A stretch of 64,000 nt of DNA from Patescibacteria group bacterium (GTDB taxonomy: Bacteria; Patescibacteriota; UBA1384; XYA2-FULL-43-10; 1-14-0-10-43-13): positions 673,183 through 737,182 of the forward strand of contig JBAZNP010000001.1 of assembly GCA_041649155.1 (NCBI GenBank), written 5' to 3'. The notes under the pieces are model-generated. The model ran no database searches, had not been told where the DNA came from, and saw nothing but the letters and a program-made list of their open reading frames with translations. Shown in pieces: positions 33,967 to 58,800 of the stretch (the first letter of the stretch is position 1; the number at the start of each line of letters is the position of its first letter). The position numbers were made by a program, and so were the translations under genes.

Positions 33967-33995
33967 TTGACAAATAAAATTTGGTATGCTATAAT
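33967..33995 (+). promoter_or_regulatory. near-consensus sigma70 promoter (TTGACA-N17-tgcTATAAT) driving a 400-nt structured leader/ncRNA and the downstream module
   Basis: ttgaca, 17 nt, tataat, with extended -10 TG. Followed by about 400 nt of GC-elevated sequence full of short hairpins before the first ATG at 34403. Confidence 0.6.
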
Positions 33996-34402: not shown

Positions 34403-35068
34403 ATGAGAACACTTGTAACTTTGGTCGTTATTATAACGACGCTGTTTCTTTTCTCGCCTAATTCCTACTGCGCCATTGGCGTTGTAGTGGAAGACGGTAA
34501 CGGACCTGTCGCACAGGGTCAGGAAGCTCAAACTAGTATTCAGGAATCTCCTCAAGATAGTGGTGAGCAGGTTGCACAAATGCCAGCTGAGGAACGGGTT
34601 GAAGAGATGGGGACCTTAGTTGACTCTCAAGTTTCGTGTGTCAATTCTGATATTTCGAAATTTAGAGAAGCTCGAGCTAATCTGGCTCGAAGGAATGAGA
34701 GTGTAGCAGTCCACGTTCTTGAACGGAAGGTTGCCAGTCTTCAGTCGAGACTGAGAATATTTAAATCTATGAAGGTTGAAATAAAAGATCTTCGTGAGAG
34801 AATGTTCACTCTCGATGACAAGAAAGATATTGAGGCGCTCAAGAAGCTCGTTGATTCATGGACGAGCAAGTTCGTTGATGATGAGGAATTCACAAAAAAG
34901 CTCCAATCTTATGTCACAAAAGAAGACTTGGAGCAGCAGTTGTCTTCTTATGCCACTAAAACAGAAGTGAATCACATCGGAAATCGAGCGAGAAATTCTT
35001 ATGTGCTTTCATGGTTAGCAATTGTGGGAGTGATTCTTCCTCCGATTTACAAGAAAGTGCGTGGGTAG
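34403..35068 (+). CDS. hypothetical secreted/membrane protein with coiled-coil region
   Basis: Signal-like N-terminus MRTLVTLVVIITTLFLFSPNSYCA, central heptad-like charged region, C-terminal TM YVLSWLAIVGVILPPIY. Confidence 0.45.
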   Translation: MRTLVTLVVIITTLFLFSPNSYCAIGVVVEDGNGPVAQGQEAQTSIQESPQDSGEQVAQMPAEERVEEMGTLVDSQVSCVNSDISKFREARANLARRNESVAVHVLERKVASLQSRLRIFKSMKVEIKDLRERMFTLDDKKDIEALKKLVDSWTSKFVDDEEFTKKLQSYVTKEDLEQQLSSYATKTEVNHIGNRARNSYVLSWLAIVGVILPPIYKKVRG

Positions 35069-35115: not shown

Positions 35116-35148
35116 CGGGGCGGCCCATATGGGCCGCCCTCTTTGTGT
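35116..35148 (+). terminator. hairpin terminator/attenuator
   Basis: ggggcggcccatatgggccgcccc-like 9-bp GC stem followed by tctttgtg (weak U-tract). Confidence 0.45.
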
Positions 35149-35217
35149 CCAATAAACTAAACTGTTGTGCAAATAGTTGATTTGTTTTATTATAAATATA
35201 TACAAGCTAGGAGGGAG

Positions 35218-38200
35218 ATGGTCGAATCGGGACAACAGCCACCACAAGAACTCGAAGGATTACGAGGTGATCTTGTTAATTTAAAGCACGAAGAAATTTC
35301 TAGTGAAGAAGATGAAATTTTGGCGGAAATTTCCAAGGCTAGACAAGAGATCGAAAATAATCCTGAAAAATTTGAGGAAATTTTGGCGTCTTTAGATGCT
35401 GATGCACTTCTTTTAAAAAGGATTTTAGAAGAAAAAAAGAAGTTTTGGGGACTTGGTGAAAAAATATCAAATATTACTGTTGATAAAATACAAAATGAAA
35501 AATGGAAAAAAGTACTAAAAATCGGCGCTAAACTTGGCGGGGGAATCATTGCATCAAGGTTGATATCAATAGGTGTTAAGAGTGCTTTTAACGTTTCTAA
35601 TCCGGTAACTGGAGCAATCTCCGGCGCTGCTATGGGGGGGTTCTGGGGCTATGTCAGGGGGAAAGACAAGACTGAATCGGCAAACGCATGGATGAAAGAG
35701 CTGAATATTGAAGAGCTGGAAACTGAAACTGTTGATGAATATTCTAACGAAGATTTAGGAAAAGTTATTGGTATTTTAAAAAATGCAATTGAAGATGGTA
35801 AAAATGGAAGGATGAGAGGCAATGCTGTTTCTAAAATTAATCTAGCTAGGAAGTATCGAGTAGCAAACAAAGAGCTTGTAAGGCGTACTAATGAGATAGA
35901 ACAGGATGAAAGTGGTTCAGTAATCGATCGAATCGATGAATTGAGCCAGGACGCAGAGGTTGAGGGAAAAGCCATATCGGAGTTATCTGGTAGGGAGCAT
36001 GAAGAACTTTATAAAATTCTCACTGAGCGTAATAAATATACGGTTGTTAAAGAAGGAATCAAAGGAGCTCTTGTCGGTGCTGGAGTTGGCTATGTGGCAA
36101 ACTGGGCTATGGATAAGATTTTTCACGTTGATGGTAATTCAGCTAAAGATGCAGCGTTGGAAGCAAAGAAGGAATCAATTAGACAAGCACATGATGCTAA
36201 AATTGATCAATTTGGGAATAATGATCTTCATAGCTTTAATACAGATCAAACTACCCACTTGCAATTAGTTGAAACAAAGGGAGACCTGCATGGGTTTAAT
36301 GACACTGAACTATCAAGCTTTACAGAGTCAGTAAATAAATCCGGTAATGTCTGGGAATTAATAAGGGATAGCCATTCCGATCTTCATAACATTGATTTAC
36401 AGGCTCCAATTGATGGAGAAACGGGCAAAAACATCGGTCAATTCATACTTGAGCATAAGGAAGCATTTTCTAACCTCGATCCGAATATACAAAGAGAAAT
36501 GTTGTCATTTCCAAGCTTAGCAGAAGATATTTTTAAAGCAGCAACTGAAAATTCATCAGCATCTGCGAGCGCAATTTCGGGTAACGCATTAGGGACTTTG
36601 GGTTTGGCTGCAATTGGCAGTGGTGGCATTTATGCTCTCGCGGCTAAAAAAGAAAAAGTGGCTAATGAAAAAATCGAAGCTTACGAGCCTAGACAACAAT
36701 CAGCATCTGGTGGAGGTGATTCTGGTCCTGACGGGACTCCATCTCCTGATGCTGGTGGAACTAGTGAGCAGAAGCCTCGAATTGTAGCGCCTAAAGGCAG
36801 ATTTGACGACAGTAATCTTGGAGAAGGCGGGCTGGCAGAAAACAACGGAGTTAATCCGGTCGGACTGGTTGAAAGCAAACCTGTTGATGTTGAAAAATAC
36901 AATCCGACCAAAGAAGATTACAAAAATGCAGAAGAGTTTTGGAAAATAAATGCGGGCAAAAAAGAAGTTAAAGAACATCTGGACGAATGGTTGTCTATAT
37001 TTATCAATCAAGGCAAATTCAATCTTAGAATTAACGGTGATGAAATTAGCGAAGTCGAAGCTTTAGAAGTTGCTGCATATAAGATTATGATTTTCGAAAA
37101 AGGTTGTGGAATTGGTGAAATTAAGATCGAAAGAAATAATGGTGTGTATTCTGCAGAGGCTGAGATCGTCGCTTTAAATGGTGGTGCTTCTGAAAAACCA
37201 GAATTGTCGCCTCAAGCTGCCGGAGTTGCAAGCGAGGGAGTAAACGCTGAAGCGGAAGACTATGGAAATAAAGAATGGATTTCTCGTGAAGCAGGAGTTG
37301 TTTTGCATGGCGCTCATGGATCAATAGCTGTCAATGCTGGCGATGTAGTGACGGAAAAATTAGGCAATCGTTTTACTATACGTGAATTATATGTCGATGA
37401 AAATCAAGATAATATTAAGATTGTTTGGGAAGATGGAAGTGATAATGTAAACACATCCGATAAATGGTATGAGTTTTTTTGGGAGGCAAAGCAAAGAGAA
37501 GAAGTGGGAGGAGGCACTGGCTTGAGTAACGAAGGCGAAGATGAGCCGGAAGTTTTTGTCCCAAGAAAATTAAATCCTGATAGGGCAGAGGGTTTAATTA
37601 AATCAGCTTCTGAAAATAACACAAATTTAAATATTCCAGAACTTGGTTTACAGAAATTTAATGTTAATAATAGTGATCAAGTTGTTTTGCTTGGCGATTT
37701 AGGAGATAATCTTGACTATTTAAAACAAGACATAGACTTTGGGTTTGTGCGGATAAATGAAATACAGGGAGAGTTAAGGGAAAAGGGTGTACAGACACCG
37801 GATTATAAGTTTTCTATAGAAAATGGTGAAAATTTCATTGAGTCTTATCTTGAGCCATTGAATGTGTTTATGGAAAAAATTTACAATCATTTGCCTCATA
37901 ATAAAGTTGAATTACCGCCAAATATTGAAAGCCAGGATTTAAGTGAAGCAATTGAGCGATTTGAAAGCGGATTCGAGAAGGTTAAAGCAAAATTAGAATT
38001 TTTTGGAGAATCGGCCAAAATTGAAAAGGTTCAAAATTTTTTAAGTCTTGCAAGAGCAATTAGGGATAATGATATCCAAAAGATTAATCCAAAATCAATT
38101 TCAAATGTGATTATGCAAACGTGGCATCCTTATAACAGCAACAAAGAGACTAATTGGATATATAAAAATGCCGAGGTTCTTAACCAACTATTGAAGGAAA

Positions 38201-38712
38201 AACTAAAAGGCTTTGATTACGAGATCATAGATGAAGAAGATTTAATTGGACATGAATTTATTCCATCAATTTGTAGGAGTATTGCATTGGAAGTTCAAAA
38301 TAAAGAGAATAAAGGCAAGATAATAGCGTTAAAGGGAGATAAAATAACAGGGGCAGGCCCTGGGGCATTAATATTCAAAGGAAAATTAGAGTATCCTGCC
38401 TTAACTGTTCTTGGGGTTGATGGTTTCAAGATAGATTTGGGCAAAGGAAAAGAGATATCTTTAGACTTAAATTCTGTTTACCGGATTAAAGACGGAGATA
38501 AGGAAGAATTCATTAAGTTTCATTGGCTGCGCGAAATTCATGGTGAGTATTTAGTAAACCTAGAAGTATCTGATTATGGTGTGCCCTTAAGTAAAGAGGG
38601 ATTAATTAGATTTATTAACAGGTATTCGATTGAGAAGATAGAAGGAGAAGTCGATCTAGGTAAGACCGAGAAAGCATATGCCAATCAATTACTTGAGGAA
38701 TTTCGTAAATAA
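35218..38712 (+). CDS. large hypothetical protein (1164 aa from the ATG at 35218) with three glycine-zipper-like amphipathic/TM segments
   Basis: RBS gagggag then ATG. Segments GGGIIASRLISIGVKSAFNVSNPVTGAISGAAMGGFWGYV, GIKGALVGAGVGYVANWAM and GNALGTLGLAAIGSGGIYALAA. A Gly/Ser/Pro-rich linker. No recognisable enzymatic motif. Confidence 0.5.
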   Translation: MVESGQQPPQELEGLRGDLVNLKHEEISSEEDEILAEISKARQEIENNPEKFEEILASLDADALLLKRILEEKKKFWGLGEKISNITVDKIQNEKWKKVLKIGAKLGGGIIASRLISIGVKSAFNVSNPVTGAISGAAMGGFWGYVRGKDKTESANAWMKELNIEELETETVDEYSNEDLGKVIGILKNAIEDGKNGRMRGNAVSKINLARKYRVANKELVRRTNEIEQDESGSVIDRIDELSQDAEVEGKAISELSGREHEELYKILTERNKYTVVKEGIKGALVGAGVGYVANWAMDKIFHVDGNSAKDAALEAKKESIRQAHDAKIDQFGNNDLHSFNTDQTTHLQLVETKGDLHGFNDTELSSFTESVNKSGNVWELIRDSHSDLHNIDLQAPIDGETGKNIGQFILEHKEAFSNLDPNIQREMLSFPSLAEDIFKAATENSSASASAISGNALGTLGLAAIGSGGIYALAAKKEKVANEKIEAYEPRQQSASGGGDSGPDGTPSPDAGGTSEQKPRIVAPKGRFDDSNLGEGGLAENNGVNPVGLVESKPVDVEKYNPTKEDYKNAEEFWKINAGKKEVKEHLDEWLSIFINQGKFNLRINGDEISEVEALEVAAYKIMIFEKGCGIGEIKIERNNGVYSAEAEIVALNGGASEKPELSPQAAGVASEGVNAEAEDYGNKEWISREAGVVLHGAHGSIAVNAGDVVTEKLGNRFTIRELYVDENQDNIKIVWEDGSDNVNTSDKWYEFFWEAKQREEVGGGTGLSNEGEDEPEVFVPRKLNPDRAEGLIKSASENNTNLNIPELGLQKFNVNNSDQVVLLGDLGDNLDYLKQDIDFGFVRINEIQGELREKGVQTPDYKFSIENGENFIESYLEPLNVFMEKIYNHLPHNKVELPPNIESQDLSEAIERFESGFEKVKAKLEFFGESAKIEKVQNFLSLARAIRDNDIQKINPKSISNVIMQTWHPYNSNKETNWIYKNAEVLNQLLKEKLKGFDYEIIDEEDLIGHEFIPSICRSIALEVQNKENKGKIIALKGDKITGAGPGALIFKGKLEYPALTVLGVDGFKIDLGKGKEISLDLNSVYRIKDGDKEEFIKFHWLREIHGEYLVNLEVSDYGVPLSKEGLIRFINRYSIEKIEGEVDLGKTEKAYANQLLEEFRK

Positions 38713-38745
38713 TTACATTAAGATAAATAAAGTCGGAGGGGAAAA

Positions 38746-39096
38746 ATGAATAACGATGATATGAACAAAGCGGACAATATTGAGGAAACTAATGATATAA
38801 TATTGCTGTATCAGAAAAAAATCATGGAAGAACTAGGGCTTGATAAGCTTTCCGAAAAAGAAAAAGAGGAAGCTGAAGCAAAAATTGCCAACCTTGTTAA
38901 TAACAGGGTGGTGAATATTATTTTGGCGTATTTACCGGAAGAGAAAGCCGAAGAATTTAAAGTTTTGATTGAGCAAGAAAAACTGGATGAAATAATTAAA
39001 TTTTTAAAAACAACAGTGCCTGATATTGAAGTTAAAATTGCAAATGATCTAATGCTGTTAAGAAAAGAATTAATAAGCAAATTGGCGAAAAAATAA
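38746..39096 (+). CDS. hypothetical protein (116 aa, K/E-rich)
   Basis: ORF with RBS ggagggg. Stop overlaps the next start (ATAATG). Confidence 0.4.
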   Translation: MNNDDMNKADNIEETNDIILLYQKKIMEELGLDKLSEKEKEEAEAKIANLVNNRVVNIILAYLPEEKAEEFKVLIEQEKLDEIIKFLKTTVPDIEVKIANDLMLLRKELISKLAKK

Positions 39097-40886
39097 TGTT
39101 ACAAAATACGGAAACAAAATCTAAGTCAGGATTACTGATGGACGCATCTGCTCATTTTAGTGAATCAGGAACTTCTGATAACTTTTTGGAGCTTCAAAAG
39201 GCTCTTAGCGCTGCTTCTGAGGCGGATAAAAATAAACTACGTGCAAGATATGCAGGTAAAGAAGGTTCTGCGGTCGAAGCGTCTCAAGAAAAAGGTATTG
39301 AGACCAGTGAGCAGGAAAAATTTGATGAATTGATGGAGGCTGTGAATAAGTTTGAGGAATTGGCCAAAGAGACTAAGAACATTGAAAAAGAACTTCAGGA
39401 AGCCGAAAGGGCTCATGATGAACATTATAGTAGCTATGCTGGGAAGATTACTTTGGCTGATCAAAATAGAGAGAGGGGATTGGTTACACTTAGAGCTGAA
39501 GTCGGACAAAAGCTCGAAGAAATGATTGTATTAAAGGGTGATATTCTAGACAAATTATCAGATATTAAATCTCATGAACTGAGGGCGAAAACATATGAGC
39601 GATTTGAAAGAAAGAAACCTGATGAAGTAGGAATGTCCAGTGAAGTAAAGTTGGAAACAAAATCCGACAAACATACAGATGATTTAAAGCATCGAACACT
39701 TAATCATAAGGCTAGGGAAATAGTTAAGTCTAATCTTGAAAAAATAGCAAAAAAGAAAACAGAAGCGGAAAAAATTGTCGTAGAAGTGGCCCCTGAAAAT
39801 GTTGAGCCTTCTGTACAGGAAGAAACCGCTGTCGCAAATGATTTGAAAGAAGAAGAAATTAGAAATAATTCAGAAGATCATCTTGCGCCTGGGATTCAAA
39901 TTGGCCGAGAAGAGGAGAGTGAAACACCTAAACCAGAAGAAGTTCAGACTAAGTCTCCAAAGGATATTATTGAACAAAAAGCGGTTATTGATATTCCTGA
40001 ACAAAAACCCCAGCCAGTTGCAGAAAATAAATCTGAAATTAAAGACAAACCATCCGAACCTCCGGTTGAAATCATGGAAATTGGACCAGATGGCGATCCT
40101 GTTAGCGTTACAGATAATGAAGGAGACTTTAGGGAAGACGAGATAACTTTTGTTGATGGTTCGGCTCAGCAGAACATTCCACAATCAAAAGTGGGGGAAA
40201 GTGAAAAGCAAAAAGTAGATTCTTCAGAATTTATCGATAAAATCAGAGAAAAACAATCCGAAATTGCAGAAAGAATGGGACTGGAACTTAAGAAACCAGT
40301 TGCCGAACCGATAAGGAAAATTGACGACTTTTTGCCGCCAACATCCAGAATTGAACAGGCAGCGGAAACAATAGAGCAAGATTTAAATAAACCAATCGCA
40401 GCTGCAAAAGCAGAACCAATTATTGATGAGAAGACTGTGAGTTCTATTCCTGTTATCCCCGAGAAGTCGGGGATCCAAGATAGTGATAGATTAGTAGATT
40501 CCCGCCTACGCGGGAATGACAATGTGGAGGGCGGGAATGACAATGCGAAAATGGCTGAATCGGACGATCAAATATTAACTCAAAATATTCAAACAGCAGA
40601 GCCCGTTGTCCCTGAGCAGAAAATCGAACCGGTTCAGCCGGTTACGGAAGAAGTGGGTAATAATGATGCAGGCAATATGATAGATATCAAGCCGGCAATC
40701 GAGGCAAAAGAAATTCAATTAGAGCAGCCTTTGCCAGAGCAAAAGAGGGGATTCTTCGGGAGAATTTTTGGCGGGAATAACGCTGATAGGCATGGTGCTG
40801 AAGTGATAGCTGGAAAGGGTGATGAATTAACCGCTGACCACATACATCAAATATTGGGTGCTAATGAAGAGAAAGAAGCGGCATAG
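39096..40886 (+). CDS. hypothetical charged/low-complexity protein (596 aa) with an in-frame palindromic-element insertion
   Basis: Coiled-coil-like E/K-rich sequence. Element E7 encodes ...IPEKSGIQDSDRLVDSRLRGNDNVEGGNDNAKM. Confidence 0.4.
   Translation: MLQNTETKSKSGLLMDASAHFSESGTSDNFLELQKALSAASEADKNKLRARYAGKEGSAVEASQEKGIETSEQEKFDELMEAVNKFEELAKETKNIEKELQEAERAHDEHYSSYAGKITLADQNRERGLVTLRAEVGQKLEEMIVLKGDILDKLSDIKSHELRAKTYERFERKKPDEVGMSSEVKLETKSDKHTDDLKHRTLNHKAREIVKSNLEKIAKKKTEAEKIVVEVAPENVEPSVQEETAVANDLKEEEIRNNSEDHLAPGIQIGREEESETPKPEEVQTKSPKDIIEQKAVIDIPEQKPQPVAENKSEIKDKPSEPPVEIMEIGPDGDPVSVTDNEGDFREDEITFVDGSAQQNIPQSKVGESEKQKVDSSEFIDKIREKQSEIAERMGLELKKPVAEPIRKIDDFLPPTSRIEQAAETIEQDLNKPIAAAKAEPIIDEKTVSSIPVIPEKSGIQDSDRLVDSRLRGNDNVEGGNDNAKMAESDDQILTQNIQTAEPVVPEQKIEPVQPVTEEVGNNDAGNMIDIKPAIEAKEIQLEQPLPEQKRGFFGRIFGGNNADRHGAEVIAGKGDELTADHIHQILGANEEKEAA
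40455..40545. repeat. palindromic mini-element E7, in-frame inside the CDS
   Basis: atccccgagaagtcggggatc ... attcccgcctacgcgggaatgacaatgtggagggcgggaatgacaatg has the same arms as E6 (cccgcgaaggcgggaat). Confidence 0.6.
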
Positions 40887-40963: not shown

Positions 40964-43501
40964 ATGACAGACGATTATTATAATGGATATGAAAGTTCAA
41001 GTGGATCAAATTGGTGGATTTGGTTGGTTGTTTTTGTTGTCGCAATTATTCTGATTTATATTATTTATCAGAAGATAAGAAAGTCAGTATTACGAAAAAA
41101 CCAAATTAATTTGACTAAAGACTGGACAATGTACAAGGTTCTAGTGCCAAGAGAAAGGCATGCAGGAGAAGATGATCAACGCAAAAATTTTCAGGAAATG
41201 TTGTCAGTTATTGAACCTTTTTATGCAAACTTGAATGCAATGTTTGATAACACTGTCTCAAAAAGACTTCAGGGGCAGGATCATATTTCGCTGGAATTAA
41301 TTGCTAAAGATAATTTAATAAGTTTCTACATCGGTTGCTCCAAGAAAATATCTAATAGTATTTTAAAAAATCTCCATGCCCAATATCCTTATGCAGAAAT
41401 TACTGAAGATAAAAACTATTCAGTTTTTCCAAATAAGCCGTTAAAAATTGATATTGCCAATTTGGGGCTAATAAAAAGATATATTTTTCCCCTAAAAACA
41501 TACAAAACATTGGAAGAGGATCCCCTTAATGCTTTATCTAATTCACTATCGAAGTTGTCCGAGGATGAGCTGGCAGGGGTGCAATTTTTACTAAGGCCAA
41601 CCACAGGTGTCTGGAGAACGGCGGGAGAGAGGGCGGCGTTCAATATTCAGCACGGAAAATCCCGTGTTTCTCATTCAAACTCAGCTACAGTTAGAGCAGG
41701 GGAGGCATTTTTTAATTTTCTAGGTTCCGCGACGCAAACTGCGCAGGGAAAAGGGGAAGGCGAGCACTCCGAGCTATATGATCCAAAGAACCCAATGAAG
41801 TTAACTCCAATGCAGGAAAGTCAAATAAAGCTTTTAGGAGAAAAAGTCTCCAAGCTTGGATTTGAGTGTCAAATAAGAATTGTGAGTGTTGCTCCCACTA
41901 TGGAAAAAGCTCGCCAAAATACTAAAGAAATCGCTTCAATATTCAATCAATTTAATTCTCCTGACTCCAATGGGCTGAATATCAAATATCCAAAAAAGAG
42001 ATCAGAAGACATAGCGAACTATGTTTTCAGGCTTTTCGGTAGGGGACCGAGATTAATTTTAAATACTGAGGAGTTATCTTCCCTATATCATTTACCAAAT
42101 CGTTTTATTGAAACCCCAAATATTGCGTGGCTGTTAGCTAAAAAAGAGCCACCTCCATCAAATTTGCCAAAAGAAGGGACAATAATCGGAAACAGTGTAT
42201 TTAGGGGGAGTGAACTTCCAATTAAAATCAAAGAGTTAGATCGGCTGAGGCACGTTTATATGATAGGTAAAACCGGTGTTGGTAAAACCGTGCTTTTCGA
42301 AAATATGATCCTTCAGGATATAAAAGAAGGAAAGGGTGTCTGCTACCTTGATCCAAATGGAGATGCGGCAGAATACATTTTAAGCCGGATACCAAAAGAA
42401 AGAGCCGACGATGTAATTTACTTCAATCCAGCTGATATAGAGAGGCCAATGGGATTGAATTTGCTTGAATGGAAGACTCCTGAGCAGAGAGATTTCTTAG
42501 TTCAGGAAGCTATTCAAATATTTTATAAACTTTTTGATCCGGGGCAGACTGGAATTGTTGGACCGCAGTTTGAACACTGGATGAGAAATGCAGCCTTAAC
42601 TTTGATGGCTCATCCAGAAGGTGGAACCCTTATTGATATTCCAAGATTGTTTACTGACCCTGATTTTGAAAAGGACCGTGTGAAATATGTGCAAGATCCA
42701 GTAGTGAAAAACTTTTGGGAGAAGCAAATGGCTAAAACTGCTGATTTCCATAAGTCAGAAATGTTAAATTATTTCACTTCAAAATTTGGTCGCTTTATGA
42801 CCAATGATATGATGAGAAATATTTTGGGTCAGACTAAGTCATCATTTGACTTCAGGGATGTGATGGATAACAAGAAAATTCTGATCTGCAATTTATCAAA
42901 AGGATTAATAGGGGAGATCAACGCTTTTCTTCTGGGTATGATAATCGTATCCAAGATAGCGATCGGCGCTTTTTCCCGTCAGGATTTAACAGAAGAAGAG
43001 AGAATTCCCTTTTATCTTTATGTTGATGAATTCCAGAACTTTATTACAGATGTTTTTGCAACTATTCTTTCTGAGTCGAGAAAATACAAATTATCTTTAA
43101 ATATCACAAACCAGTACATTGCGCAGCTGGATGAAAAAATACGTGATGCTGTTATTGGTAATGCCGGCACTTTGGTGTCATTCAGAATTGGTGCGGCGGA
43201 TGCGGACTTTTTGGTTAAAGAATTTGATCCTCTTAAGCCTGACGATATGACCAATATTGATAAGTATAATTTTTATATAAAAATGCTGATTGATGGCGCA
43301 CCGACAAAGCCGTTTAATGGTCAGAGTTTGGCTCCCGATCCCAATGCAAATAGTCAGCTTAGCGCAGCTATAAAAGAATTATCAAGACTGAAATATGGGA
43401 AGCCAAAAGATCAAGTTAATAATGAAATATTAGATAGAACTAAAGTTGACTCTATAGATTTACCAGGGATTAGTTCTACGGATGCAGTGAAAACAGCATA
43501 G
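40964..43501 (+). CDS. TraG/VirD4/TraD-like (type IV coupling protein-like) P-loop ATPase with N-terminal TM and a 400-aa N-terminal domain
   Basis: TM WWIWLVVFVVAIILIYIIY. Walker A IGKTGVGKT (near 42264). Walker B/TraG-D_C-like YLYVDEFQNF. Arginine-finger/Q motif SESRKYKLSLNITNQYIAQL. Ends with IGNAGTLVSFRIGAADADFL. Confidence 0.6.
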   Translation: MTDDYYNGYESSSGSNWWIWLVVFVVAIILIYIIYQKIRKSVLRKNQINLTKDWTMYKVLVPRERHAGEDDQRKNFQEMLSVIEPFYANLNAMFDNTVSKRLQGQDHISLELIAKDNLISFYIGCSKKISNSILKNLHAQYPYAEITEDKNYSVFPNKPLKIDIANLGLIKRYIFPLKTYKTLEEDPLNALSNSLSKLSEDELAGVQFLLRPTTGVWRTAGERAAFNIQHGKSRVSHSNSATVRAGEAFFNFLGSATQTAQGKGEGEHSELYDPKNPMKLTPMQESQIKLLGEKVSKLGFECQIRIVSVAPTMEKARQNTKEIASIFNQFNSPDSNGLNIKYPKKRSEDIANYVFRLFGRGPRLILNTEELSSLYHLPNRFIETPNIAWLLAKKEPPPSNLPKEGTIIGNSVFRGSELPIKIKELDRLRHVYMIGKTGVGKTVLFENMILQDIKEGKGVCYLDPNGDAAEYILSRIPKERADDVIYFNPADIERPMGLNLLEWKTPEQRDFLVQEAIQIFYKLFDPGQTGIVGPQFEHWMRNAALTLMAHPEGGTLIDIPRLFTDPDFEKDRVKYVQDPVVKNFWEKQMAKTADFHKSEMLNYFTSKFGRFMTNDMMRNILGQTKSSFDFRDVMDNKKILICNLSKGLIGEINAFLLGMIIVSKIAIGAFSRQDLTEEERIPFYLYVDEFQNFITDVFATILSESRKYKLSLNITNQYIAQLDEKIRDAVIGNAGTLVSFRIGAADADFLVKEFDPLKPDDMTNIDKYNFYIKMLIDGAPTKPFNGQSLAPDPNANSQLSAAIKELSRLKYGKPKDQVNNEILDRTKVDSIDLPGISSTDAVKTA

Positions 43502-43670: not shown

Positions 43671-44177
43671 ATGCCTCAAGAAAAAGAATTACAAGCGATT
43701 AAACACTTACTTGATTCTGCTGAAAATAATATCAGGCAGGTAAAAAGTATACTATTTGCGTCTGAAATTACAAAAAAAGCTCAAGATCTTGAGGAAAGTG
43801 GAGATGGCACAGTGATAGAAGGCGTGTTCGATGGTGAGAATATGATCGGTCCTGATAAGACAAAGTATCCAACACCTCCAAACTATGCGTCAAAATCAAA
43901 ACTTATTCCCGGTGATGTATTAAAATTGACAATACTTCCAGACGGATCATTTCTTTTCAAGCAAATTGGCCCGATAAAAAGAAAGAAGATCATTGGTGAG
44001 CTTGAAGAAATATCAGAAGGAAAGTTTATTGTTAATGCAGAAGGCAGGAAATATAGAGTTCTCCTTGCATCTGTGACATATTTTAAGGCTAATAATGGGG
44101 ACAAATTAACCATTATAGTGCCAGAAAAAGATGAGTCAGAGTGGGCAGCAGTAGAAAATATATTAGAAGGTAAATAA
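43671..44177 (+). CDS. hypothetical protein (168 aa)
   Basis: ORF with RBS ggag. No recognisable motif. Confidence 0.35.
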   Translation: MPQEKELQAIKHLLDSAENNIRQVKSILFASEITKKAQDLEESGDGTVIEGVFDGENMIGPDKTKYPTPPNYASKSKLIPGDVLKLTILPDGSFLFKQIGPIKRKKIIGELEEISEGKFIVNAEGRKYRVLLASVTYFKANNGDKLTIIVPEKDESEWAAVENILEGK

Positions 44178-44178
44178 A

Positions 44179-45213
44179 ATGACAACAATAAAGAATTTTA
44201 GTCCCTACAAAATTGTTAAAAAGGCAATGGAAAGCTTAAAACCAAATGAGGTTAAAGTTATTGCAGGTCGTTTTGGTATTGATGAAGACAGAAAGACTCT
44301 TTCCTCTATTGGTAAAGAATTAAATCTTTCGAGAGAAAGAATTCGTCAAATTGAAAAAGAGGGACTTAAAAAGCTTGCATCTAAAATCGTCGATCGTAAA
44401 AATGAATATCTTGAATTAATCATTCAATCATTTAAGCAAAGCGGTGGAATTGCCAAGCATGAAAATATCGCAAATAAGTTTTTGGAAGAGAGTTTGAAAT
44501 CAAATAAAAATGAATTTAATGCTTTGCATTTGATTTTCTTTCTCATGCCGGAACTTAAGAAGATCGATAAGACTAGAGAACTGGAAGCAAGCTGGGTCAT
44601 TGCTTCTTTATCTAAAGATGAAGTTCTTGGAATTATTAATAATTGGGTTGATCATCTACAAAAAGTGAAAAAACCAACTACGATAGATATTCTCGTAAAA
44701 GAAAATCCTAGTCATAATAAATATGAAATGACCTTTTTGTCCGAATTACCTTACATCAGTAAAAAGCTGGTTAAAACAGAAAATGACTTTATTGGATTAG
44801 CATCTTGGCCTGAAGTAAATCCTAAAAATGTGCGCGATAAAATTTACTATATCCTAAAAAAAGAAGGTAAACCTGTTCACTTTGAAATAATTGCAAAGAA
44901 GATTAATGAAGAAAAATTTTCAAAGAAAAAAGTTGTAAAAGCCACTGTTCACAATGAATTAATTGCTGACGACAGATTTATTCTAGTAGGCAGAGGAATT
45001 TATGCACTTAGAGAATGGGGATACGAGCCCGGAACAGTGAGAGATATTATAAAAAATATTTTAGATATTCATAATCATTCTATGAAGGTTGATGAAATTG
45101 TTTCAGAAGTTCTAAAACAAAGAACTGTTAAGAAAAACACTATTTTGATTAACTTGCAAACAAAGTCGGATTTTAAAAAAGCCGGCAAAGATAGCTACGA
45201 ACTCGCTAAGTAA
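44179..45213 (+). CDS. sigma-70 region-4-like HTH protein with 270-aa C-terminal extension (not a canonical sigma factor)
   Basis: VKVIAGRFGIDEDRKTLSSIGKELNLSRERIRQIEKEGLKKLASKI matches the sigma70 region 4.2 HTH. No region 2. Start overlaps the upstream stop. Confidence 0.5.
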   Translation: MTTIKNFSPYKIVKKAMESLKPNEVKVIAGRFGIDEDRKTLSSIGKELNLSRERIRQIEKEGLKKLASKIVDRKNEYLELIIQSFKQSGGIAKHENIANKFLEESLKSNKNEFNALHLIFFLMPELKKIDKTRELEASWVIASLSKDEVLGIINNWVDHLQKVKKPTTIDILVKENPSHNKYEMTFLSELPYISKKLVKTENDFIGLASWPEVNPKNVRDKIYYILKKEGKPVHFEIIAKKINEEKFSKKKVVKATVHNELIADDRFILVGRGIYALREWGYEPGTVRDIIKNILDIHNHSMKVDEIVSEVLKQRTVKKNTILINLQTKSDFKKAGKDSYELAK

Positions 45214-45306
45214 TTAGCAAAAACATTGAGAATGATGTAAAATAGTGTTAGAAAGTAAACGCGATATAATTTGGCGTTTACTTGTAAAACAAAATGGGGG
45301 AGCTCT

Positions 45307-48300
45307 ATGCAGATTTTTTTATTTCTAATTTTAGTTGTAATTGTGTTAGCCGCAGGCTATCTTATTTTGATTTTAACTAAAATCAAAAATGCAAAAGCCA
45401 AGCAGGAGTGGATGGAGTCGCAAGAATATACGACCTTGCGAATTGATGTACCTAAAAATAATGACAAAAAACCACTTTCTGCCGAACAAATGTTTGCTTC
45501 CATTCATGGAATATATTCTGAAAATTCTCTTTTTCAGAACCATTTGAGTTTTGAAATAGTTGCCCGAGACAAATTCATTCAGTTTTATGTGTATGTGCCG
45601 AAACATATTAAGGACTTTGTTGAGGGCCAAATCTATGCTCAGTATCCAGCAGTCGAAATTCATGAAGTTCCTGATTATACGGAGTCTGTAAAGCCGACAG
45701 ATGGAATTAATTTTGCCGTTTGCGACTTAAACATGACAAAACCGGATGTCTATCCGGTGAAATTTTTTACTGATTTTGAGGTTGACCCATTGAGTGGTAT
45801 TACTTCTGTTATGACTAAGCTTAATCAGGGTGAAGAAGTATGGTTTCAATTGGTCATGAAGCCGGTAGGGGATGAGTGGCAAGAAAAAGGCAATAGCATC
45901 GTTTCGGCAGTCAGGGCCGGACGTAAACCAGGTGGGGTGGGCATTTCTAGCACTATATTAGGTCATTTAAAACAATTTTCAAAGGCTTTTATTCAGCAGG
46001 CGATTCAGCCTGGAGTCGAGACAGAAGAAAGCAAAAGCGAGGTTAAACTTCCAGCTACTGTGGAGGAGGCTCTTAAAGGGATTGAACAAAAAATAGTTAA
46101 ATTAGGGTTTGAGACAAAAATTCGTATTCTTTCAATCTCGAACGATCCCATTTCAGCTAAAGTGAGATGCCAAAGTGTCTCAGCTGCTTTTAAACAATTC
46201 AATACAACAAATTTAAATGGTTTTAAGGTCGGGGAAATAGTCACGAACAATTATGATACATGGAAAGACTTTTCTCAAAGGTCATTTGAAGATGCGGGTA
46301 ATATTCTTAATATCGCCGAGCTTGCTTCTATTTATCATCTTCCTCATGAAACTGTAGAAACACCAAACATTGTTTGGTCGGGCGCAAAAAAGGGTGAACC
46401 ACCGGCAAATTTGCCTTTCAGAGAAAATATATCCGAAGAGGTTTTGACCGTTATTGGCATGACTAATTTTAGAAGCACTTTTCATGAATTCGGTATAAAA
46501 AATGATGACAGAAGAAGGCATATCTATATTGTGGGTAAGTCTGGTACTGGTAAATCAACTCTGATTGAAAATATGGCTGTTGATGATGTAGTTAGGGGCA
46601 AAGGCGTAATAATTGTTGATCCTCATGGTGAATTGGCAGATAAAGTTATATCTTGTGTACCTGATTATCGAATTAATGATGTTATTGTTTTTGATCCTGC
46701 TGATCGAGCATACCCGATTGGTTTTAACCTGTTGGAACACGTAGAGGATGATTTTAAGGGCATGGTTGCTTCTGGATTTGTAGGGATATTTAAAAAAATC
46801 TTCGGTGATTCATGGGGCCCCCGTTTGGAGCATATCTTAAGAAATACTGTTTTGGCATTGCTTGATTTTACAGAATCGACAATGCTTGATATTCCACGAA
46901 TGCTTACGGATAACCGTTTTAGAGATCGTGTAGTTGAAAAAGTTAAGGATCCGGTAATCAGGGACTTCTGGGTAAATGAATTTGCTCAATATGATAGTAA
47001 GTTCAGAACTGAAGCAGTGTCTCCGATTTTGAATAAAGTCGGTCAATTTTTGGCGACTGCTACTATTCGAAATATTGTTGGCCAGTCAAAATCAAAAATC
47101 AATATCAGGGAAATTATGGATCAGAAGAAGATATTGATTGTAAATCTTTCCCGTGGAAAAATTGGCGAAGACAATTCCGCTTTGCTCGGTGCTATGATGA
47201 TTACCAAAATTCAGCTTGCAGCAATGAGTCGTGCTGATGTTACGGCAGATAAGAGAGCAGATTGTTTCTTATATGTTGACGAGTTTCAGAACTTTGCTAC
47301 AGAATCTTTTGCAACCATTTTGTCAGAAGCGAGAAAATATAATCTATGTTTGACGATGGCTAACCAGTACATTGAGCAGATGTCTGAAGAGGTAAGAAGT
47401 GCTGTGTTCGGTAATGCCGGCACTATTGCGGCATTTAGGGTTGGCGGAGCTGACGCTGATTTTCTGGTTAAGGAATTTGAGCCTGTATTTGATGCAAACG
47501 ATATGGTTAATCTTGATAAATATAACATCTATATTAAACTTTTGATTGACGGTATTTCTTCGCCGGCTTTTTCGGCTAAGACTTTACCGCCGGTTCAAAA
47601 ACTTACCGGTAATGTTGAGAAAATTGTCAATCAATCGCACGAAAAATACTCTTCTTTGCGTTCAGTGATAGAAGAAAAGATTATCAATAGGGACAAGGAA
47701 GAAGAAGCTCTTCTTAAAGCTGAAGCTGAAGCTTTTAAACAAGGTGGATTAGAAGCTTTATTAGTAAAAAAAGCTGATCATTCTACGGTTCATGTTGCGT
47801 CGCCGGAAAAGAAATCCGATGCGTTTGGTGAAGCGCCAAAGGAGACGGGGGATAGTCTTAAAAGAGAAAGTGTGCCAGAAAGAGTAACGTCAGAAAATAC
47901 AGAAAATACTGAGGACTATATCAAGAAGGAATCCAAGCCGCGTGTTTTTAGATATCAAAATATAATTGGCGATAAAATCTATAAAGAGCAAACCGCGAGA
48001 GGGGGAGTAAAGTGGTATGTTGGAGAGGAAATCGATCTTGCTAAGCAGAAAGAGCTTGGTGTGGAAGTTTTGAAAGATGGCGAAAAAATGATTGAATTGG
48101 CAAACAAGGTCAAAAAATCTGCCGTTAACGTAAGCCATGAGAGAACGGAGGATCCAAAAGATACAGATTTAAACAAAACCGATTCTACTATTAAAGATCG
48201 CGAAACAGGATCAAAGGAAACTAAAAAAGTAGAAGATGAAAAATCTTTAACACCTTCTAAAGAACCTGATGTGATCATTCAGGAAGAAAAAGGCGAGAAA

Positions 48301-48393
48301 GCAAAAGAAACTACTACCAAAGATAATAAAACCAATATTGTTAATCATGCCGATGCGAAACACCTAACAGAAGGTGAAGAAACAGTTTTGTAA
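45307..48393 (+). CDS. second TraG/VirD4/TraD-like ATPase (paralog) with C-terminal 330-aa charged extension
   Basis: RBS gggggag then ATG. TM IFLFLILVVIVLAAGYLILIL. Walker A VGKSGTGKS (near 46535). FLYVDEFQNF. SEARKYNLCLTMANQYIEQM. FGNAGTIAAFRVGGADADFL. N-domain shares YAQYP(A/Y)(V/A)EI with the first copy. Confidence 0.6.
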   Translation: MQIFLFLILVVIVLAAGYLILILTKIKNAKAKQEWMESQEYTTLRIDVPKNNDKKPLSAEQMFASIHGIYSENSLFQNHLSFEIVARDKFIQFYVYVPKHIKDFVEGQIYAQYPAVEIHEVPDYTESVKPTDGINFAVCDLNMTKPDVYPVKFFTDFEVDPLSGITSVMTKLNQGEEVWFQLVMKPVGDEWQEKGNSIVSAVRAGRKPGGVGISSTILGHLKQFSKAFIQQAIQPGVETEESKSEVKLPATVEEALKGIEQKIVKLGFETKIRILSISNDPISAKVRCQSVSAAFKQFNTTNLNGFKVGEIVTNNYDTWKDFSQRSFEDAGNILNIAELASIYHLPHETVETPNIVWSGAKKGEPPANLPFRENISEEVLTVIGMTNFRSTFHEFGIKNDDRRRHIYIVGKSGTGKSTLIENMAVDDVVRGKGVIIVDPHGELADKVISCVPDYRINDVIVFDPADRAYPIGFNLLEHVEDDFKGMVASGFVGIFKKIFGDSWGPRLEHILRNTVLALLDFTESTMLDIPRMLTDNRFRDRVVEKVKDPVIRDFWVNEFAQYDSKFRTEAVSPILNKVGQFLATATIRNIVGQSKSKINIREIMDQKKILIVNLSRGKIGEDNSALLGAMMITKIQLAAMSRADVTADKRADCFLYVDEFQNFATESFATILSEARKYNLCLTMANQYIEQMSEEVRSAVFGNAGTIAAFRVGGADADFLVKEFEPVFDANDMVNLDKYNIYIKLLIDGISSPAFSAKTLPPVQKLTGNVEKIVNQSHEKYSSLRSVIEEKIINRDKEEEALLKAEAEAFKQGGLEALLVKKADHSTVHVASPEKKSDAFGEAPKETGDSLKRESVPERVTSENTENTEDYIKKESKPRVFRYQNIIGDKIYKEQTARGGVKWYVGEEIDLAKQKELGVEVLKDGEKMIELANKVKKSAVNVSHERTEDPKDTDLNKTDSTIKDRETGSKETKKVEDEKSLTPSKEPDVIIQEEKGEKAKETTTKDNKTNIVNHADAKHLTEGEETVL

Positions 48394-55847: not shown

Positions 55848-58800
55848 CTACAACTTCACAAATCCGAATATCCTCTGTAGTGATTCCAGTATTACTTCAA
55901 GTGGTCCTTTGTCTTTTTGCGCTGTTGGAGTGGTGAAGGTAAAGTCTCCTGAGACTGCGGTGTTGCCATTGGCATCTTTTGAGGTTGTTCTAAAGTGGTA
56001 GGCTGTGTCAGGAGCTAAATCTTCCAGTGTTACGGAGTGACCCATATTCAGAGATTCTTCTTCTCTTGTCTTTTGTCCATAGTTTCCGCTTGTGCCAAAT
56101 TCAACCTGACTGCTTGCTCCTCTGTTTGTATCCCATGATACAGTTAATTGTACTTTATCTTTAGCTACCAACACTGATTCTTCTATCACCTTGCTATTTG
56201 TAACTTCCAGTGTTGAGTCGTCTCCGACTATCGGCTTTCTCACTACAGGGAGCCCGTCATTTATGCGGTATCTAAAGGTTGTGTTTAGACTCAAGCCTTT
56301 GTCTATGAAGTAGCCATTACTATCAGTGTTAATGCTAGAGTAACTGCTATCATCATTGCTCTTTTCTACCTTTGATCCTTTTGGAAAGGTCAGAACATTT
56401 TGATAGAATCCCTTTTCTTTAAACGATACATCTGTAACTAGAAGATTGTTGGAAAATCCCTGAAGCGACTCCAATGAGTTAGTATCTGAAGACGTGGTGT
56501 CAGCCGCTTTTGTGTTGGTTGTTGTTAATACCCTGAACAGCCCTTGTAATGTATCAATGATGATCTTGAGAATTGATTTGTCTTCCGGTGCAGGTTTCGT
56601 TGTAAATGAAATATCTTCACTTACAAGTTCTTTACCATAAATGTCCTTGCTTGTTACTTTTGCATGATAAGTGGTCGCTGGTTTTAGATCCTTAAGAAGA
56701 ACATTGTGTCCTTGGTTTAAGCTTTCATCTAATTCTGTTTTGTTTCCATAACTGGTAGAGGCTCCATATTCAACTAAGCTTGTTGCTGGATAGACAGTTT
56801 TCCATGAAACAGTAACGGTGGTTTTGTCCTTAGCTACTACAGAAGAAGCAGTGCCTTTTGGATCAGAGATGACATCTGTTTCAATTGCTTTTCCTGTCGT
56901 ATTAACTTTAACTACTCCTGTTTCTGAGCTATTGCCGGCATTGTCAACTGCTTTCACTTTGTAGACATAATCTCCGGAAGTAACATCTGCGTCTAATAGA
57001 TAATATGGCTGGCTCTCATTTCCAGTGTAATTAGTATTAGTATTTTCTTTCTTCGGATTGATATCCCCTATCTTGGCATCTCCCTTAAAGACCTCGTAAT
57101 TTTTAATTAAAGAAGTGTCATCATTTGATCCAGCAAAGTCTAGATAAATGGCATAAACAGAAGCAGCAGTATTGGAAACATTGAATACCCTAAGATCAGA
57201 TGGAATAGTTGGGGCAATGCTATCAACTATTACGGAAAATGTAGAAGTAGCCTTTTCGTTGCCGGCATTATCTAAAGCACGAGCTACAATTGTGTGATTG
57301 CCTTCTGTATAATCTTTCCATTCATAATTCCAGGAATTAGAACTTAGATCTTCGCTCTGAGAACTTAGGGTAGTAGTATTCCAGTCACCATTATCTATTT
57401 GGATTTCTACTTTATTTAGTCCGACTATTGGTTTGGAGGCAGTACCAGAAAGAGCGATTGATTTAGAATTAACGTATTGGCCGGAAGTTAAGTTATCTAA
57501 TGTAATCACAGGACTGGTTTGATCGATCAATACACTCCCCTCAAGAGAGAAGCTGCTTATATGACCAACATTGTCAACTGCCTTAATCCTAATGTAGTAT
57601 GTGCCGACAGAAGCAAAGGTTTTTGATATTGAGTTAGTAGTTACAGTTGTGCCATTTACTATGTCAGTGCCACCAGAGATTGATCCAATGTAGACTAAGT
57701 ATTCCTTAATTCCTGAACCATTACCGTCAGAAGCGGCATTCCAGTTAAAGCTAACCGTTAAATTATTAGTAGGATTGGCAGAAGCTGCAGGAGTAATACT
57801 GCTCAAATCAGGAGTGATAGTGTCGACTTTAACCTCTCTTGACCCAGGAGACAATGAATTAGAATTTCCGGCGTTATCAACGGCATAATATGTTAGAATA
57901 TTATTTCCTTCAGGGGCAGTAATAGCAGAAGAGTAATCAGCCCAGTCCCCGTTCCCCCATCTATACTTGATACCGGATACACCACTGCTATCGACATCCG
58001 TAGCTGACAAAGTCACAGTCGGAGCGGAAGTGTAATATCCGTTTGTATCAGGAGATGCGGGGTTGATGGATGAGGATGATGAAGGATTAACAGTATCCAA
58101 TTTAATCTCTCGATTAAAGGTGGATGAGACATTTCCTGCTATATCGACACCATAGTAGTAAACAGTATTTACTCTTTCTGGTGCAGTTAAAGCGGTAGAG
58201 TATGTGCTAAAGTCGCCACTACTACCCCATCTGTAATATATCGAACCGGCACCACTCAAAGCATCTGTCTCTGAGAATGTAACAGAAGGAGCTGTTCCTT
58301 TGTAGTATCCGTTAATACCATTTACCTCAGAAGGAGAAACAGAGATATCTACAGCAGACGGAGCAGCAGTGTCTACTTTGTATTCTGTAATTGAAGGATC
58401 ATCAAGACCAGAATTATTGGCTTCATCTGTAGCATATGCATAAAGAGAATTCGTTCCTTCTGGAGCAGTAACTGGAGTAGAATAAGTCAAGTAATCTCCA
58501 GAGCTTCCCCATCTGTAATATATTCCTGTCACAACCGGCCCGATTGACTCGGCCGATAAAGTAATGGTCGGAGCAGTTGTCTTAAACCAATTATTTGATC
58601 CGTTCGGAGATACGGGATTAGAAACAGAAATTACAATCGGTGCTGTATAAACAAAATTCCAACCGTTGTTATTGCCGCTATCAATAACATTACTATAATT
58701 TCCAGGAGTGATTATTCCTCCTGTAATGTTTGAATTAGCAACTTGAATATATTGATCAGACGTAAATGAAGCAGGGATAGCAATTGTATATTGATCTGAC

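Follow-up and report, generated by a model that had tools for sequence, protein, structure and literature searches.

The 64,000-nt window analyzed here is the whole stretch of DNA from position 673,183 to 737,182 (forward strand) of contig JBAZNP010000001.1 in assembly GCA_041649155.1, a Patescibacteria group bacterium. At 35218..38712 on the + strand it contains a genuine gene with an uncharacterized product of 1164 aa, for which the best explanation is an integral membrane protein restricted to its lineage, in a Berkelbacteria-like Patescibacterium. At about even odds (roughly 50%), its sequence and gene context point to a resident inner-membrane protein with four helices that is paired in a module with a small DUF5663 protein and would act as a partner of type IV secretion system (T4SS) ATPases, as a scaffold, an adaptor or a channel-lining component. 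The genomic tie to T4SS ATPases is supported because ten loci place a family member beside an ATPase that resembles a type IV coupling protein (T4CP), and two distant family members are embedded in VirB3/TrsD/VirB4 operons.

A large part of bacterial diversity belongs to the Patescibacteria, ultra-small bacteria that apparently live on other bacteria. A recent paper (Quinonero-Coronel et al. 2025, PMC12102498) describes as unknown which substrates their T4SS has, what several of the subunits are and what the abundant 'orphan' VirD4-like ATPases do. The 1164-aa protein and its DUF5663 partner, being linked both to a canonical VirB3/TrsD/VirB4 operon and, within a hypervariable island, to an orphan coupling-protein pair, give specific genes to consider as a missing component or an effector of the T4SS, and they open strain-specific variation at a secretion locus to direct testing. 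Should the link be no more than synteny, the protein would be just another membrane protein specific to its lineage.

A conserved N-module carries an exchangeable C-terminal region

The gene and the parts of its product are listed below. Residue numbering follows the 1164-aa version, transmembrane segments are abbreviated TM, and model confidence is given as the predicted local distance difference test (pLDDT).

35218..38712, + strand: gene of the 1164-aa protein, from the list of open reading frames (ORFs); stop codon 38710-38712
35218..35511, + strand: N-terminal region, aa 1-98, acidic, helical/coiled-coil, with a conserved L-D-A-D-x-x-L motif; predicted cytoplasmic; lysine plus arginine (K+R) 15%
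35512..35658, + strand: TM1/TM2 glycine-zipper hairpin, aa 99-147, with the N-P turn at 128-129; from hydropathy and motif counts
35659..36045, + strand: helical domain, aa 148-276, predicted cytoplasmic; pLDDT 80-90; K+R 17%
36046..36117, + strand: TM3, aa 277-300, KGALVGAGVGYVANW, with G283xxxG287xxxG291; from hydropathy and conservation
36118..36558, + strand: helical loop domain, aa 301-447, predicted extracytoplasmic; pLDDT 82-91 for aa 350-440
36559..36648, + strand: TM4, aa 448-477, G/A/S-rich GNALGTLGLAAIGSGGIYALAA followed by KKEK; from hydropathy and conserved position
36649..36942, + strand: linker, aa 478-575, a charged stretch and a flexible G/S/P/D-rich part whose end is still conserved with the relative P0002
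36943..38709, + strand: orphan C-terminal region, aa 576-1164, mixed alpha/beta, variable

A word-indexed search for homologues returned the protein itself and one relative, P0002. Exhaustive HMMER searching against 1.84 billion representatives gave a family of 31 clusters, every one of which matches the protein only over aa ~27-490, with hydrophobic segments at equivalent positions in all 31 cluster representatives. Judged by these matches, the conserved part is an N-module of ~490 aa, and the family appears to be an undescribed one restricted to Patescibacteria.

No domain or sequence match to the protein was found in Pfam, NCBIfam, PADLOC, PDB sequences (phmmer), or plasmids and phages (tblastn). 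This agrees with an earlier annotation of the same DNA (the sequence-only reading), which saw no recognizable catalytic domain and stated that confident homology to a soluble enzyme family would refute its proposal; no such homology emerged. The family profile gave only sub-threshold matches among PDB sequences, to the prion glycine-rich segment, and fold searches with the N-module returned no known fold, no channel and no NTF2-like match. AlphaFold2 (AF2) modeling, suggested by that annotation, gave an all-alpha N-module with four TMs of low confidence, with helices at aa 10-88 modeled at pLDDT about 80-86, and an unreliable model of the C-terminal 615 aa (pLDDT 35.4).

Identity to P0002 is 82-92% up to aa ~550-575 and then collapses. 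At the DNA level, similarity to the P0002 locus (L001) ends at 36951 and resumes at 38726, just past the stop codon; relative to L001/P0002, the C-terminus has been replaced as a cassette. Aa 576-750 are weakly similar to P0002, and otherwise no homologue of aa 576-1164 was found either by the exhaustive HMMER search or by tblastn and phmmer against all fetched loci. Across the family, C-termini form a mosaic of short domains patchily shared between members. Pfam found no C-terminal domain in the 31 family members, including none of adhesin type or of the Ig/fn3 type, and inspection of the C-termini revealed no common motif or signal.

A sharp breakpoint near aa 575, with ~90% identity on one side, unrelated sequence on the other and DNA homology resuming after the stop codon, is a pattern that a polymorphic toxin of the CDI, Rhs or LXG type would produce, in which a delivery N-terminus carries an exchangeable C-terminal toxin. 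We consider such a toxin highly improbable here. Despite the swapped C-terminus, the DUF5663 proteins encoded downstream in the window and in L001 share 91% identity, so DUF5663 tracks the conserved N-module rather than the variable part; because it does not co-vary with the C-terminus and belongs to a conserved family, it is not an immunity gene. No toxin domain was found in Pfam, NCBIfam or PADLOC, and tblastn and phmmer searches of the fetched loci found no orphan C-terminal or immunity cassettes nearby. Assignment to the polymorphic toxin systems was rejected on the combination of a variable C-terminus with a conserved downstream gene.

The family is linked to T4SS ATPases in two genomic settings

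Downstream of the gene, the following features lead to a pair of ATPases, T4CPa and T4CPb.

38746..39096, + strand: DUF5663 gene, 116 aa, pI 4.8, small acidic helical protein; Pfam PF18908, E 1.6e-4
39096..40886, + strand: 596-aa protein, acidic, Pro/Glu-rich, without TM, pI 4.7, probably disordered; directly upstream of the first ATPase
40964..43501, + strand: T4CPa, 845 aa, membrane-anchored VirD4/TraG-like coupling-protein ATPase with an N-terminal TM
43671..45213, + strand: conserved 168-aa protein and 344-aa sigma-70 region 4/HARE-HTH protein (sigHARE), between the two ATPases
45271..48393, + strand: T4CPb, 1040 aa, VirD4/TrwB-like ATPase with an N-terminal TM; paralogue, 36% identical to T4CPa

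T4CPa matches Pfam T4SS-DNA_transf (29.3 bits, cut-off 20.1) and TraG-D_C (23.3 bits, cut-off 22) as well as NCBIfam TraD, and its best match among PDB sequences is DotL/IcmO (E 0.009). T4CPb matches TrwB_AAD_bind (37.1 bits, cut-off 20.5) and TraG-D_C (25 bits). Both therefore combine a P-loop domain above the Pfam threshold with an N-terminal anchor, the features that define type IV coupling proteins; no P-loop domain was found in the 1164-aa protein. The sequence-only reading had placed the gene directly upstream of the ATPase pair. It does lie upstream, but two genes stand between it and T4CPa and two more separate the ATPases.

Gene order in L001 is as in the window up to the end of the contig. 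A locus search with alignment A3 found one further locus, on a JGI contig (L002), and no match in GTDB genomes. L002 has the same arrangement with a homologue only 29% identical to the 1164-aa protein, next to a T4CPa that is 71% identical; the remaining identities are 62% for the 168-aa protein, 54% for sigHARE, 65% for TGT and 36% for DUF5663, and the acidic protein is unalignable. With T4CPa as bait, 69 orthologous GTDB loci were recovered, mostly from Berkelbacteria-type metagenome-assembled genomes (MAGs), with a conserved backbone of rplJ-rplL-tgt-[island]-T4CPa-168-sigHARE-T4CPb-(secDF). Eight of these loci (covering P0006, P0008, P0010, P0011, P0016, P0019 and P0021) carry the family, always in the order family member, DUF5663, one further gene, T4CPa. 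Together with the window and L002, this makes ten loci with a family member followed by DUF5663, a disordered protein and T4CPa.

In other genomes the same island position is filled by other large proteins of 650-2043 aa. Most of those examined have a long hairpin and then one or two TMs about 120-170 aa apart, and one island family aligned to the family described here in hhalign with 94% probability over 82 columns, covering the N-terminal helix and the hairpin. Among loci with sigHARE and no less than 5 kb of sequence upstream, 25 of 26 contain such a large protein.

Two side observations concern these loci. The four-gene block T4CPa-168-sigHARE-T4CPb lies beside secDF in dozens of Berkelbacteria-type genomes (loci L003-L071). 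Three island proteins (L005:5037-8399, L015:1873-8004 and L034:20-5791) carry a calcineurin-like metallophosphoesterase in their C-terminal part; the domain in L005 spans aa 745-946 (E 1e-21), and that in L015 resembles ApaH, Pnkp and Ser/Thr phosphatases.

The second setting involves P0025, a distant family member (phmmer E 1e-11 and blastp E 7e-19 to the 1164-aa protein), and its relative P0033. Downstream of each come DUF5663 and, immediately after it, PrgI (VirB3-like), TraC-like/TrsD and VirB4. A TrbL_3 (VirB6-like) gene lies upstream in locus L073, and L072 and L073 are both located beside recF/dnaN. Locus L073, on a metagenomic contig, also has a gene matching Pfam 23S_rRNA_IVP (11585-11977, 130 aa) between PrgI and the TraC-like gene, which is missing from the otherwise collinear L072.

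These data bear on whether the synteny is an accident, that is, whether an unrelated membrane protein happens to occupy a recombination hot spot between tgt and the T4CP genes. Island content varies widely, the island is missing in one clade, and the terminator-like hairpin and promoter-like sites described below suggest separate upstream transcription units, all as expected of a hot spot. However, distant members are independently linked to VirB3/TrsD/VirB4 at another chromosomal site, and order and tight spacing to T4CPa are kept in ten loci spanning 25-32% identity in the protein itself. Because the independent linkage involves a different set of T4SS genes, coincidence is hard to uphold, and we judge this explanation decidedly unlikely.

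The large protein and DUF5663 form a fixed two-gene module

In all 12 family loci with context, DUF5663 adjoins the family member on the same strand. An iterated DUF5663 search found it immediately beside a large protein, again on the same strand, in 33 loci, and the order of the two genes is inverted in other large-protein families. We defined a DUF5663-paired module as a same-strand DUF5663 gene adjacent to a protein of at least 600 aa with a long hydrophobic hairpin and further TMs; the window and all 12 family loci contain one. The 1164-aa protein and DUF5663 are thus a fixed two-gene module.

A candidate counterpart may exist in Saccharibacteria. In Southlakia epibionticum, SEML1_0161 encodes a 767-aa hypothetical protein and is followed by two DUF5663 genes, SEML1_0162 and SEML1_0163, according to the supplements of Wang et al. 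2023 (PMC10633639). From this gene arrangement, SEML1_0161-0163 may be the equivalent of the large protein plus DUF5663. The same source scores SEML1_0161 and SEML1_0162 as essential in transposon sequencing (Tn-seq), and its supplement gives structure matches of SEML1_0163 to the trigger-factor C-terminal domain and the LTXXQ/Spy family, which are chaperone-like.

Four hydrophobic helices with conserved glycine zippers

Hydropathy delineates three G/A/S-rich hydrophobic stretches, at aa 99-147, 277-300 and 448-477. The first consists of two helices, TM1 and TM2, broken at a conserved N-P turn; AF2 secondary structure assigns helices to 110-124 and 128-153, and relatives have a hydrophobic stretch of 42-57 aa where TM1/TM2 lie. 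The protein has four hydrophobic helices, namely the TM1/TM2 hairpin, TM3 and TM4. The sequence-only reading had described three glycine-zipper helices built from G/A/S repeats, with the first two 130-180 residues apart and the third about 370 residues further on. The first spacing agrees with our measurement (130-178); the second does not, the last segment lying ~170 residues after the second and ~350 after the first.

The repeats themselves are neither random nor confined to this protein. Small-x3-small-x3-small motifs occur 27 times, against 13.5 +/- 3.9 in shuffled sequences (2 of 2000 shuffles reach 27), and 13 of the 27 fall in the three segments, which make up 8.8% of the protein. The number of helices given earlier has to be corrected, and strict zippers are limited to two of them: GxxxGxxxG is confined to aa 132-148 and 283-291, where TM2 (PVTGAISGAAMGGFWGYV) carries GxxxGxxxGxxxG (G132/G136/G140/G144) and TM3 its shorter version. 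TM4 shows only small-xxx-small spacing (A465/G469/A473). Among 31 family representatives, G140 and G291 do not vary, and conservation of G136 and G287 is 90% or higher. TM2 and TM3 therefore belong to the transmembrane glycine-zipper motif class, defined by (G/A/S)xxxGxxxG conserved in a membrane helix. Membership in the Pfam families of that name is not indicated: PF13488 Gly-zipper_Omp/PF13441 Gly-zipper_YMGG reach E 0.27 and 11.6 bits, below the cut-off of 25 (aa 125-149), and Gly-zipper Pfam profiles match 5 of 25 relatives with a best E of 0.0035.

Conservation extends to the soluble parts of the N-module. In aa 148-276 the conserved residues include W158, L180, G185, A190, G201 and Y265, and in aa 301-447 they include G359, N391-I-D393-L, Q425 and S430-x-P432. 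Counting the glycines of TM2 and TM3, the invariant or near-invariant columns include G136, G140, G287, G291, W158, G359, N391 and P432.

Flanking charges were counted as K+R in the 15 residues on either side of each TM in 25 family sequences. They average 2.6 before TM1 and 0.2 after it, 3.0 after TM2, 3.9 before TM3 and 0.8 after it, and 0.5 before TM4 and 3.1 after it. The TM3-TM4 loop contains 5% K+R and has a net charge of -7.3 per 100 aa, versus 15-19% K+R in other regions. Since this pattern follows the positive-inside rule, we infer a four-pass topology with the N-terminus inside, a hairpin, aa 148-276 in the cytoplasm, aa 301-447 outside and the C-terminus inside. No signal peptide was found in the protein.

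Because segment positions are kept across the family and the flanking charges are positive-inside, the sequence data make a membrane protein very probable. The earlier annotation had taken a lack of predicted membrane insertion as the other finding that would count against its proposal of a membrane or channel component; hydrophobic segments and charges both point to insertion. Its membrane part is supported; its channel or pore part is not, and no fold match to any channel was found. Glycine zippers are features of tight helix packing or oligomerization, not of conduction.

A different reading of the first stretch would change the topology. If it spans once, the protein has three TMs and its C-terminus lies outside, as a strain-specific adhesin or host-recognition region. 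Rapid C-terminal divergence and cassette replacement are typical of exposed proteins, the homologue in L002 has diverged to 29% identity against 71% for its T4CPa, and TM1 is weak, with ~2.8 charged residues per 24 aa. On the other hand, a stretch of 42-57 aa with a conserved N-P or G-P break has the length of a hairpin, and K/R-rich flanks follow both TM2 and TM4. Neither adhesin-type nor Ig/fn3 domains were matched by Pfam in the C-termini of the 31 members, and the PPP/ApaH-like phosphoesterase domains of related island proteins are usually cytoplasmic. A surface-exposed variable protein thus seems quite unlikely.

The hydrophobicity of the segments enters into another alternative, in which the protein is a membrane-inserting effector exported by the T4SS, with DUF5663 as a chaperone that shields its helices and the N-module inserting into a host membrane, possibly as an oligomeric pore. 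The sequence-only reading had named a translocated substrate as one option. Exported TM effectors and translocators typically have TMs of low hydrophobicity, as is the case here (1.06-1.49). A conserved N-terminus with a swapped C-terminus fits a delivered effector domain, calcineurin-like phosphoesterases occupy the C-terminal part of analogous large proteins, and a coupling-protein ATPase, the substrate receptor of a T4SS, is encoded next door. The partner also suits a chaperone, being small, acidic, helical (116 aa, pI 4.8) and always adjacent, with the chaperone-like structure matches reported for SEML1_0163 (PMC10633639). Against export, the family-wide positive-inside pattern is that of Sec/YidC insertion into the producer's own membrane, the TMs of many relatives are fully hydrophobic (KD as high as 2.2), conserved soluble domains on both membrane sides resemble a resident protein, and the completely different C-termini share no conserved C-terminal signal. 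We regard an exported effector as unlikely.

A proposed resident membrane partner of T4SS ATPases

In the reading that we prefer, a resident membrane protein, four helices most likely hold the N-module of ~490 aa in the cytoplasmic membrane of the producing cell. A cytoplasmic coiled-coil would be followed by the TM1/TM2 hairpin, a cytoplasmic domain, TM3, an external domain of ~150 aa that contains the invariant NIDL and SxP motifs, and TM4. The flexible linker would then lead to the ~590-aa C-terminal region, strain-specific, exchangeable and predicted to be cytoplasmic. The protein and DUF5663 probably act at the membrane with T4SS ATPases, VirD4-like ones in this lineage and VirB3/TrsD/VirB4 in others, and coupling to these ATPases or a role in transport would be consistent with the gene neighborhoods. 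Through its glycine zippers the protein probably packs its helices tightly or homo-oligomerizes, and the variable C-terminus probably supplies a strain-specific function.

Several observations weigh against this reading. A clade with ~48% T4CPa identity has tgt-T4CPa-T4CPb only, without the island, the 168-aa gene and sigHARE; because this clade keeps the ATPase pair, the 1164-aa protein is not an obligatory subunit of the T4CP ATPases. The hypervariable island could mark a recombination hot spot rather than functional coupling. Segment hydrophobicity is marginal, with Kyte-Doolittle values (KD19) of 1.06-1.49, highest for TM4 (1.49), while many relatives reach KD 1.6-2.2 at equivalent positions, and AF2 confidence in the TMs is low (pLDDT <50 at 103-127 and 447-469). 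A cytoplasmic location is unusual for a fast-evolving domain. SEML1_0161-0163 adjoins infB and fmt, away from the T4SS (PMC10633639).

Comparison with known systems

The Patescibacteria T4SS is the closest framework. According to PMC12102498, one locus type in this phylum is PrgI-TrsD-VirB4 beside dnaN/recF, MPF-FATA-like, and genomes have about two VirD4-like T4CPs that are mostly far from virB4 and are called 'orphan'; T4SS is reported as essential in S. epibionticum, the one genetically tractable species (PMC10633639). Distant family members lie within the described locus type, and the window carries two such orphan T4CPs. The difference is that the family is not listed as a component in the available parts of PMC12102498 and PMC10633639, and the accessible text and supplements of PMC12102498 contain no mention of DUF5663/PF18908. 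The family would be an unlisted accessory T4SS component.

By analogy, the protein may work in a way that comes closest to an 'extended VirB6' or to an accessory membrane protein of the T4SS. Extended VirB6 subunits (F-plasmid TraG, TcpH, ConG, Rickettsia RvhB6) likewise combine a conserved N-terminal membrane module with a large, hydrophilic, variable C-terminus and are encoded in or beside T4SS clusters; the role of the hydrophilic extensions is stated as unknown in a review (PMC12857230). However, VirB6 has at least five strongly hydrophobic helices and a TrbL/VirB6 match, and the 1164-aa protein has four weak, glycine-rich ones. VirB6/TrbL identity was rejected on this helix count, the lack of a Pfam/NCBIfam match and the presence of a separate TrbL_3 in L073. 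VirB8 identity was rejected as well, given an all-alpha N-module with four TMs and no NTF2-like fold match. An analogy to EsaA/EssC of the type VII secretion system (T7SS) was discarded because the ATPases match T4CP and not FtsK/SpoIIIE profiles and no WXG100-like partner was found. A prophage or plasmid origin was rejected from the chromosomal housekeeping context and the lack of plasmid or phage similarity.

Resemblance to the Gly-zipper_Omp/YMGG/2TM families (SlyB), VacA, MscL and the prion core lies in GxxxGxxxG in TM2/TM3 and in hairpin geometry. Weak profile matches, including one to the PrP AGAAAAGAVVGGLGG region, are all far below thresholds. Those families are small lipoproteins or toxins, in contrast to a 1164-aa multi-domain protein of a monoderm, and by sequence the motif is shared but homology is not indicated.

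The layout also recalls translocators or effectors with their chaperones (YopB/IpaB with SycD/IpgC, VirE2-VirE1, and DotL with its adaptors IcmS/W), through the N-terminal coiled-coil, weak hairpin, small acidic helical neighbor and coupling ATPase. Unlike a true relative, however, the protein shows no sequence or fold similarity to them, and its charges indicate the producer's own membrane. It is doubtful, and in our view a long shot, that the large glycine-zipper protein and DUF5663 are the missing cargo and chaperone of the Patescibacteria T4SS. Were this so, DUF5663 would keep the helices soluble until coupling-protein or VirB4 ATPases exported the large protein, and the N-module would assemble by means of its glycine zippers into an oligomeric pore or anchor within the host bacterium's membrane. 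The swapped C-terminus, which in sister families is a phosphoesterase, would have its site of action in or on the host, and the hypervariable island would be a host-range or effector locus of epibionts.

Gene model and transcription setting

The longest ORF over the gene, 35167..38712, begins with GTG and encodes 1181 aa, which is also the Logan gene call. ATG 35218 is preceded by a Shine-Dalgarno sequence, AGGAGGGAG, and yields 1164 aa. The closest homologue, P0002, shares this start position, in support of the shorter model, and the 1164-aa form is identical to NCBI MFA4996224.1 (MAG: hypothetical protein WC536_03755, Patescibacteria group bacterium, from a 798,787-nt contig). The sequence-only reading had the gene right but paired 35218-38712 with 1181 aa; these disagree because 35218 gives 1164 aa and 1181 aa is obtained only from GTG 35167.

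The window is chromosomal, with ~37% GC and housekeeping genes that include rplJ/rplL, tgt, secDF, tRNA synthetases, dprA and topA, and an Rfam scan of it gave no match. Two features lie upstream of the gene:

34403..35068, + strand: 221-aa protein, signal/TM at the N-terminus, then coiled-coil, TM at the C-terminus (hydropathy); upstream member of the variable island
35117..35140, + strand: terminator-like hairpin with a 10-bp stem (9 GC pairs), between the 221-aa gene and the gene of the 1164-aa protein

The hairpin reads GGGGCGGCCC-ATAT-GGGCCGCCCT, and the T-tract behind it is no more than weak. This element may act in termination, in attenuation or in stabilizing the RNA. A + strand hairpin scan from the gene to T4CPa found none comparably strong. 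The gap to DUF5663 is 34 nt, the DUF5663 and 596-aa genes overlap, and 78 nt separate the 596-aa gene from T4CPa, all on the + strand. Co-transcription from the 1164-aa protein to T4CPa is likely because the genes share one strand with short gaps and the strong hairpin lies only upstream.

Other genes in the window

The 221-aa protein is 72% identical in L001, and comparable two-TM proteins occur in many islands. Upstream of its gene is a promoter-like site (33967-33995), a perfect TTGACA-17-TATAAT with an extended -10 TG.

Proteins encoded directly upstream of T4CPa (L002-L053) are in many loci acidic, Pro/Glu-rich and probably disordered, with lengths of 150-600 aa. Many carry a C-proximal basic-aromatic motif (RGFFGRIFGG in the window, and GWLRNIFGG, GLLSRLFGG or GFWAGLFGGG in others), and many have a Glu-rich tail that terminates in -AA (...NEEKEAA in the window). 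The motif and tail could be what the neighboring coupling ATPase recognizes, either as a short linear motif or as a C-terminal signal.

On the - strand of the window, 55848-61472 encodes an 1874-aa protein with fn3, Big_13 and purple-acid-phosphatase N-terminal-type domains in its C-terminal third, which is probably a giant surface protein.

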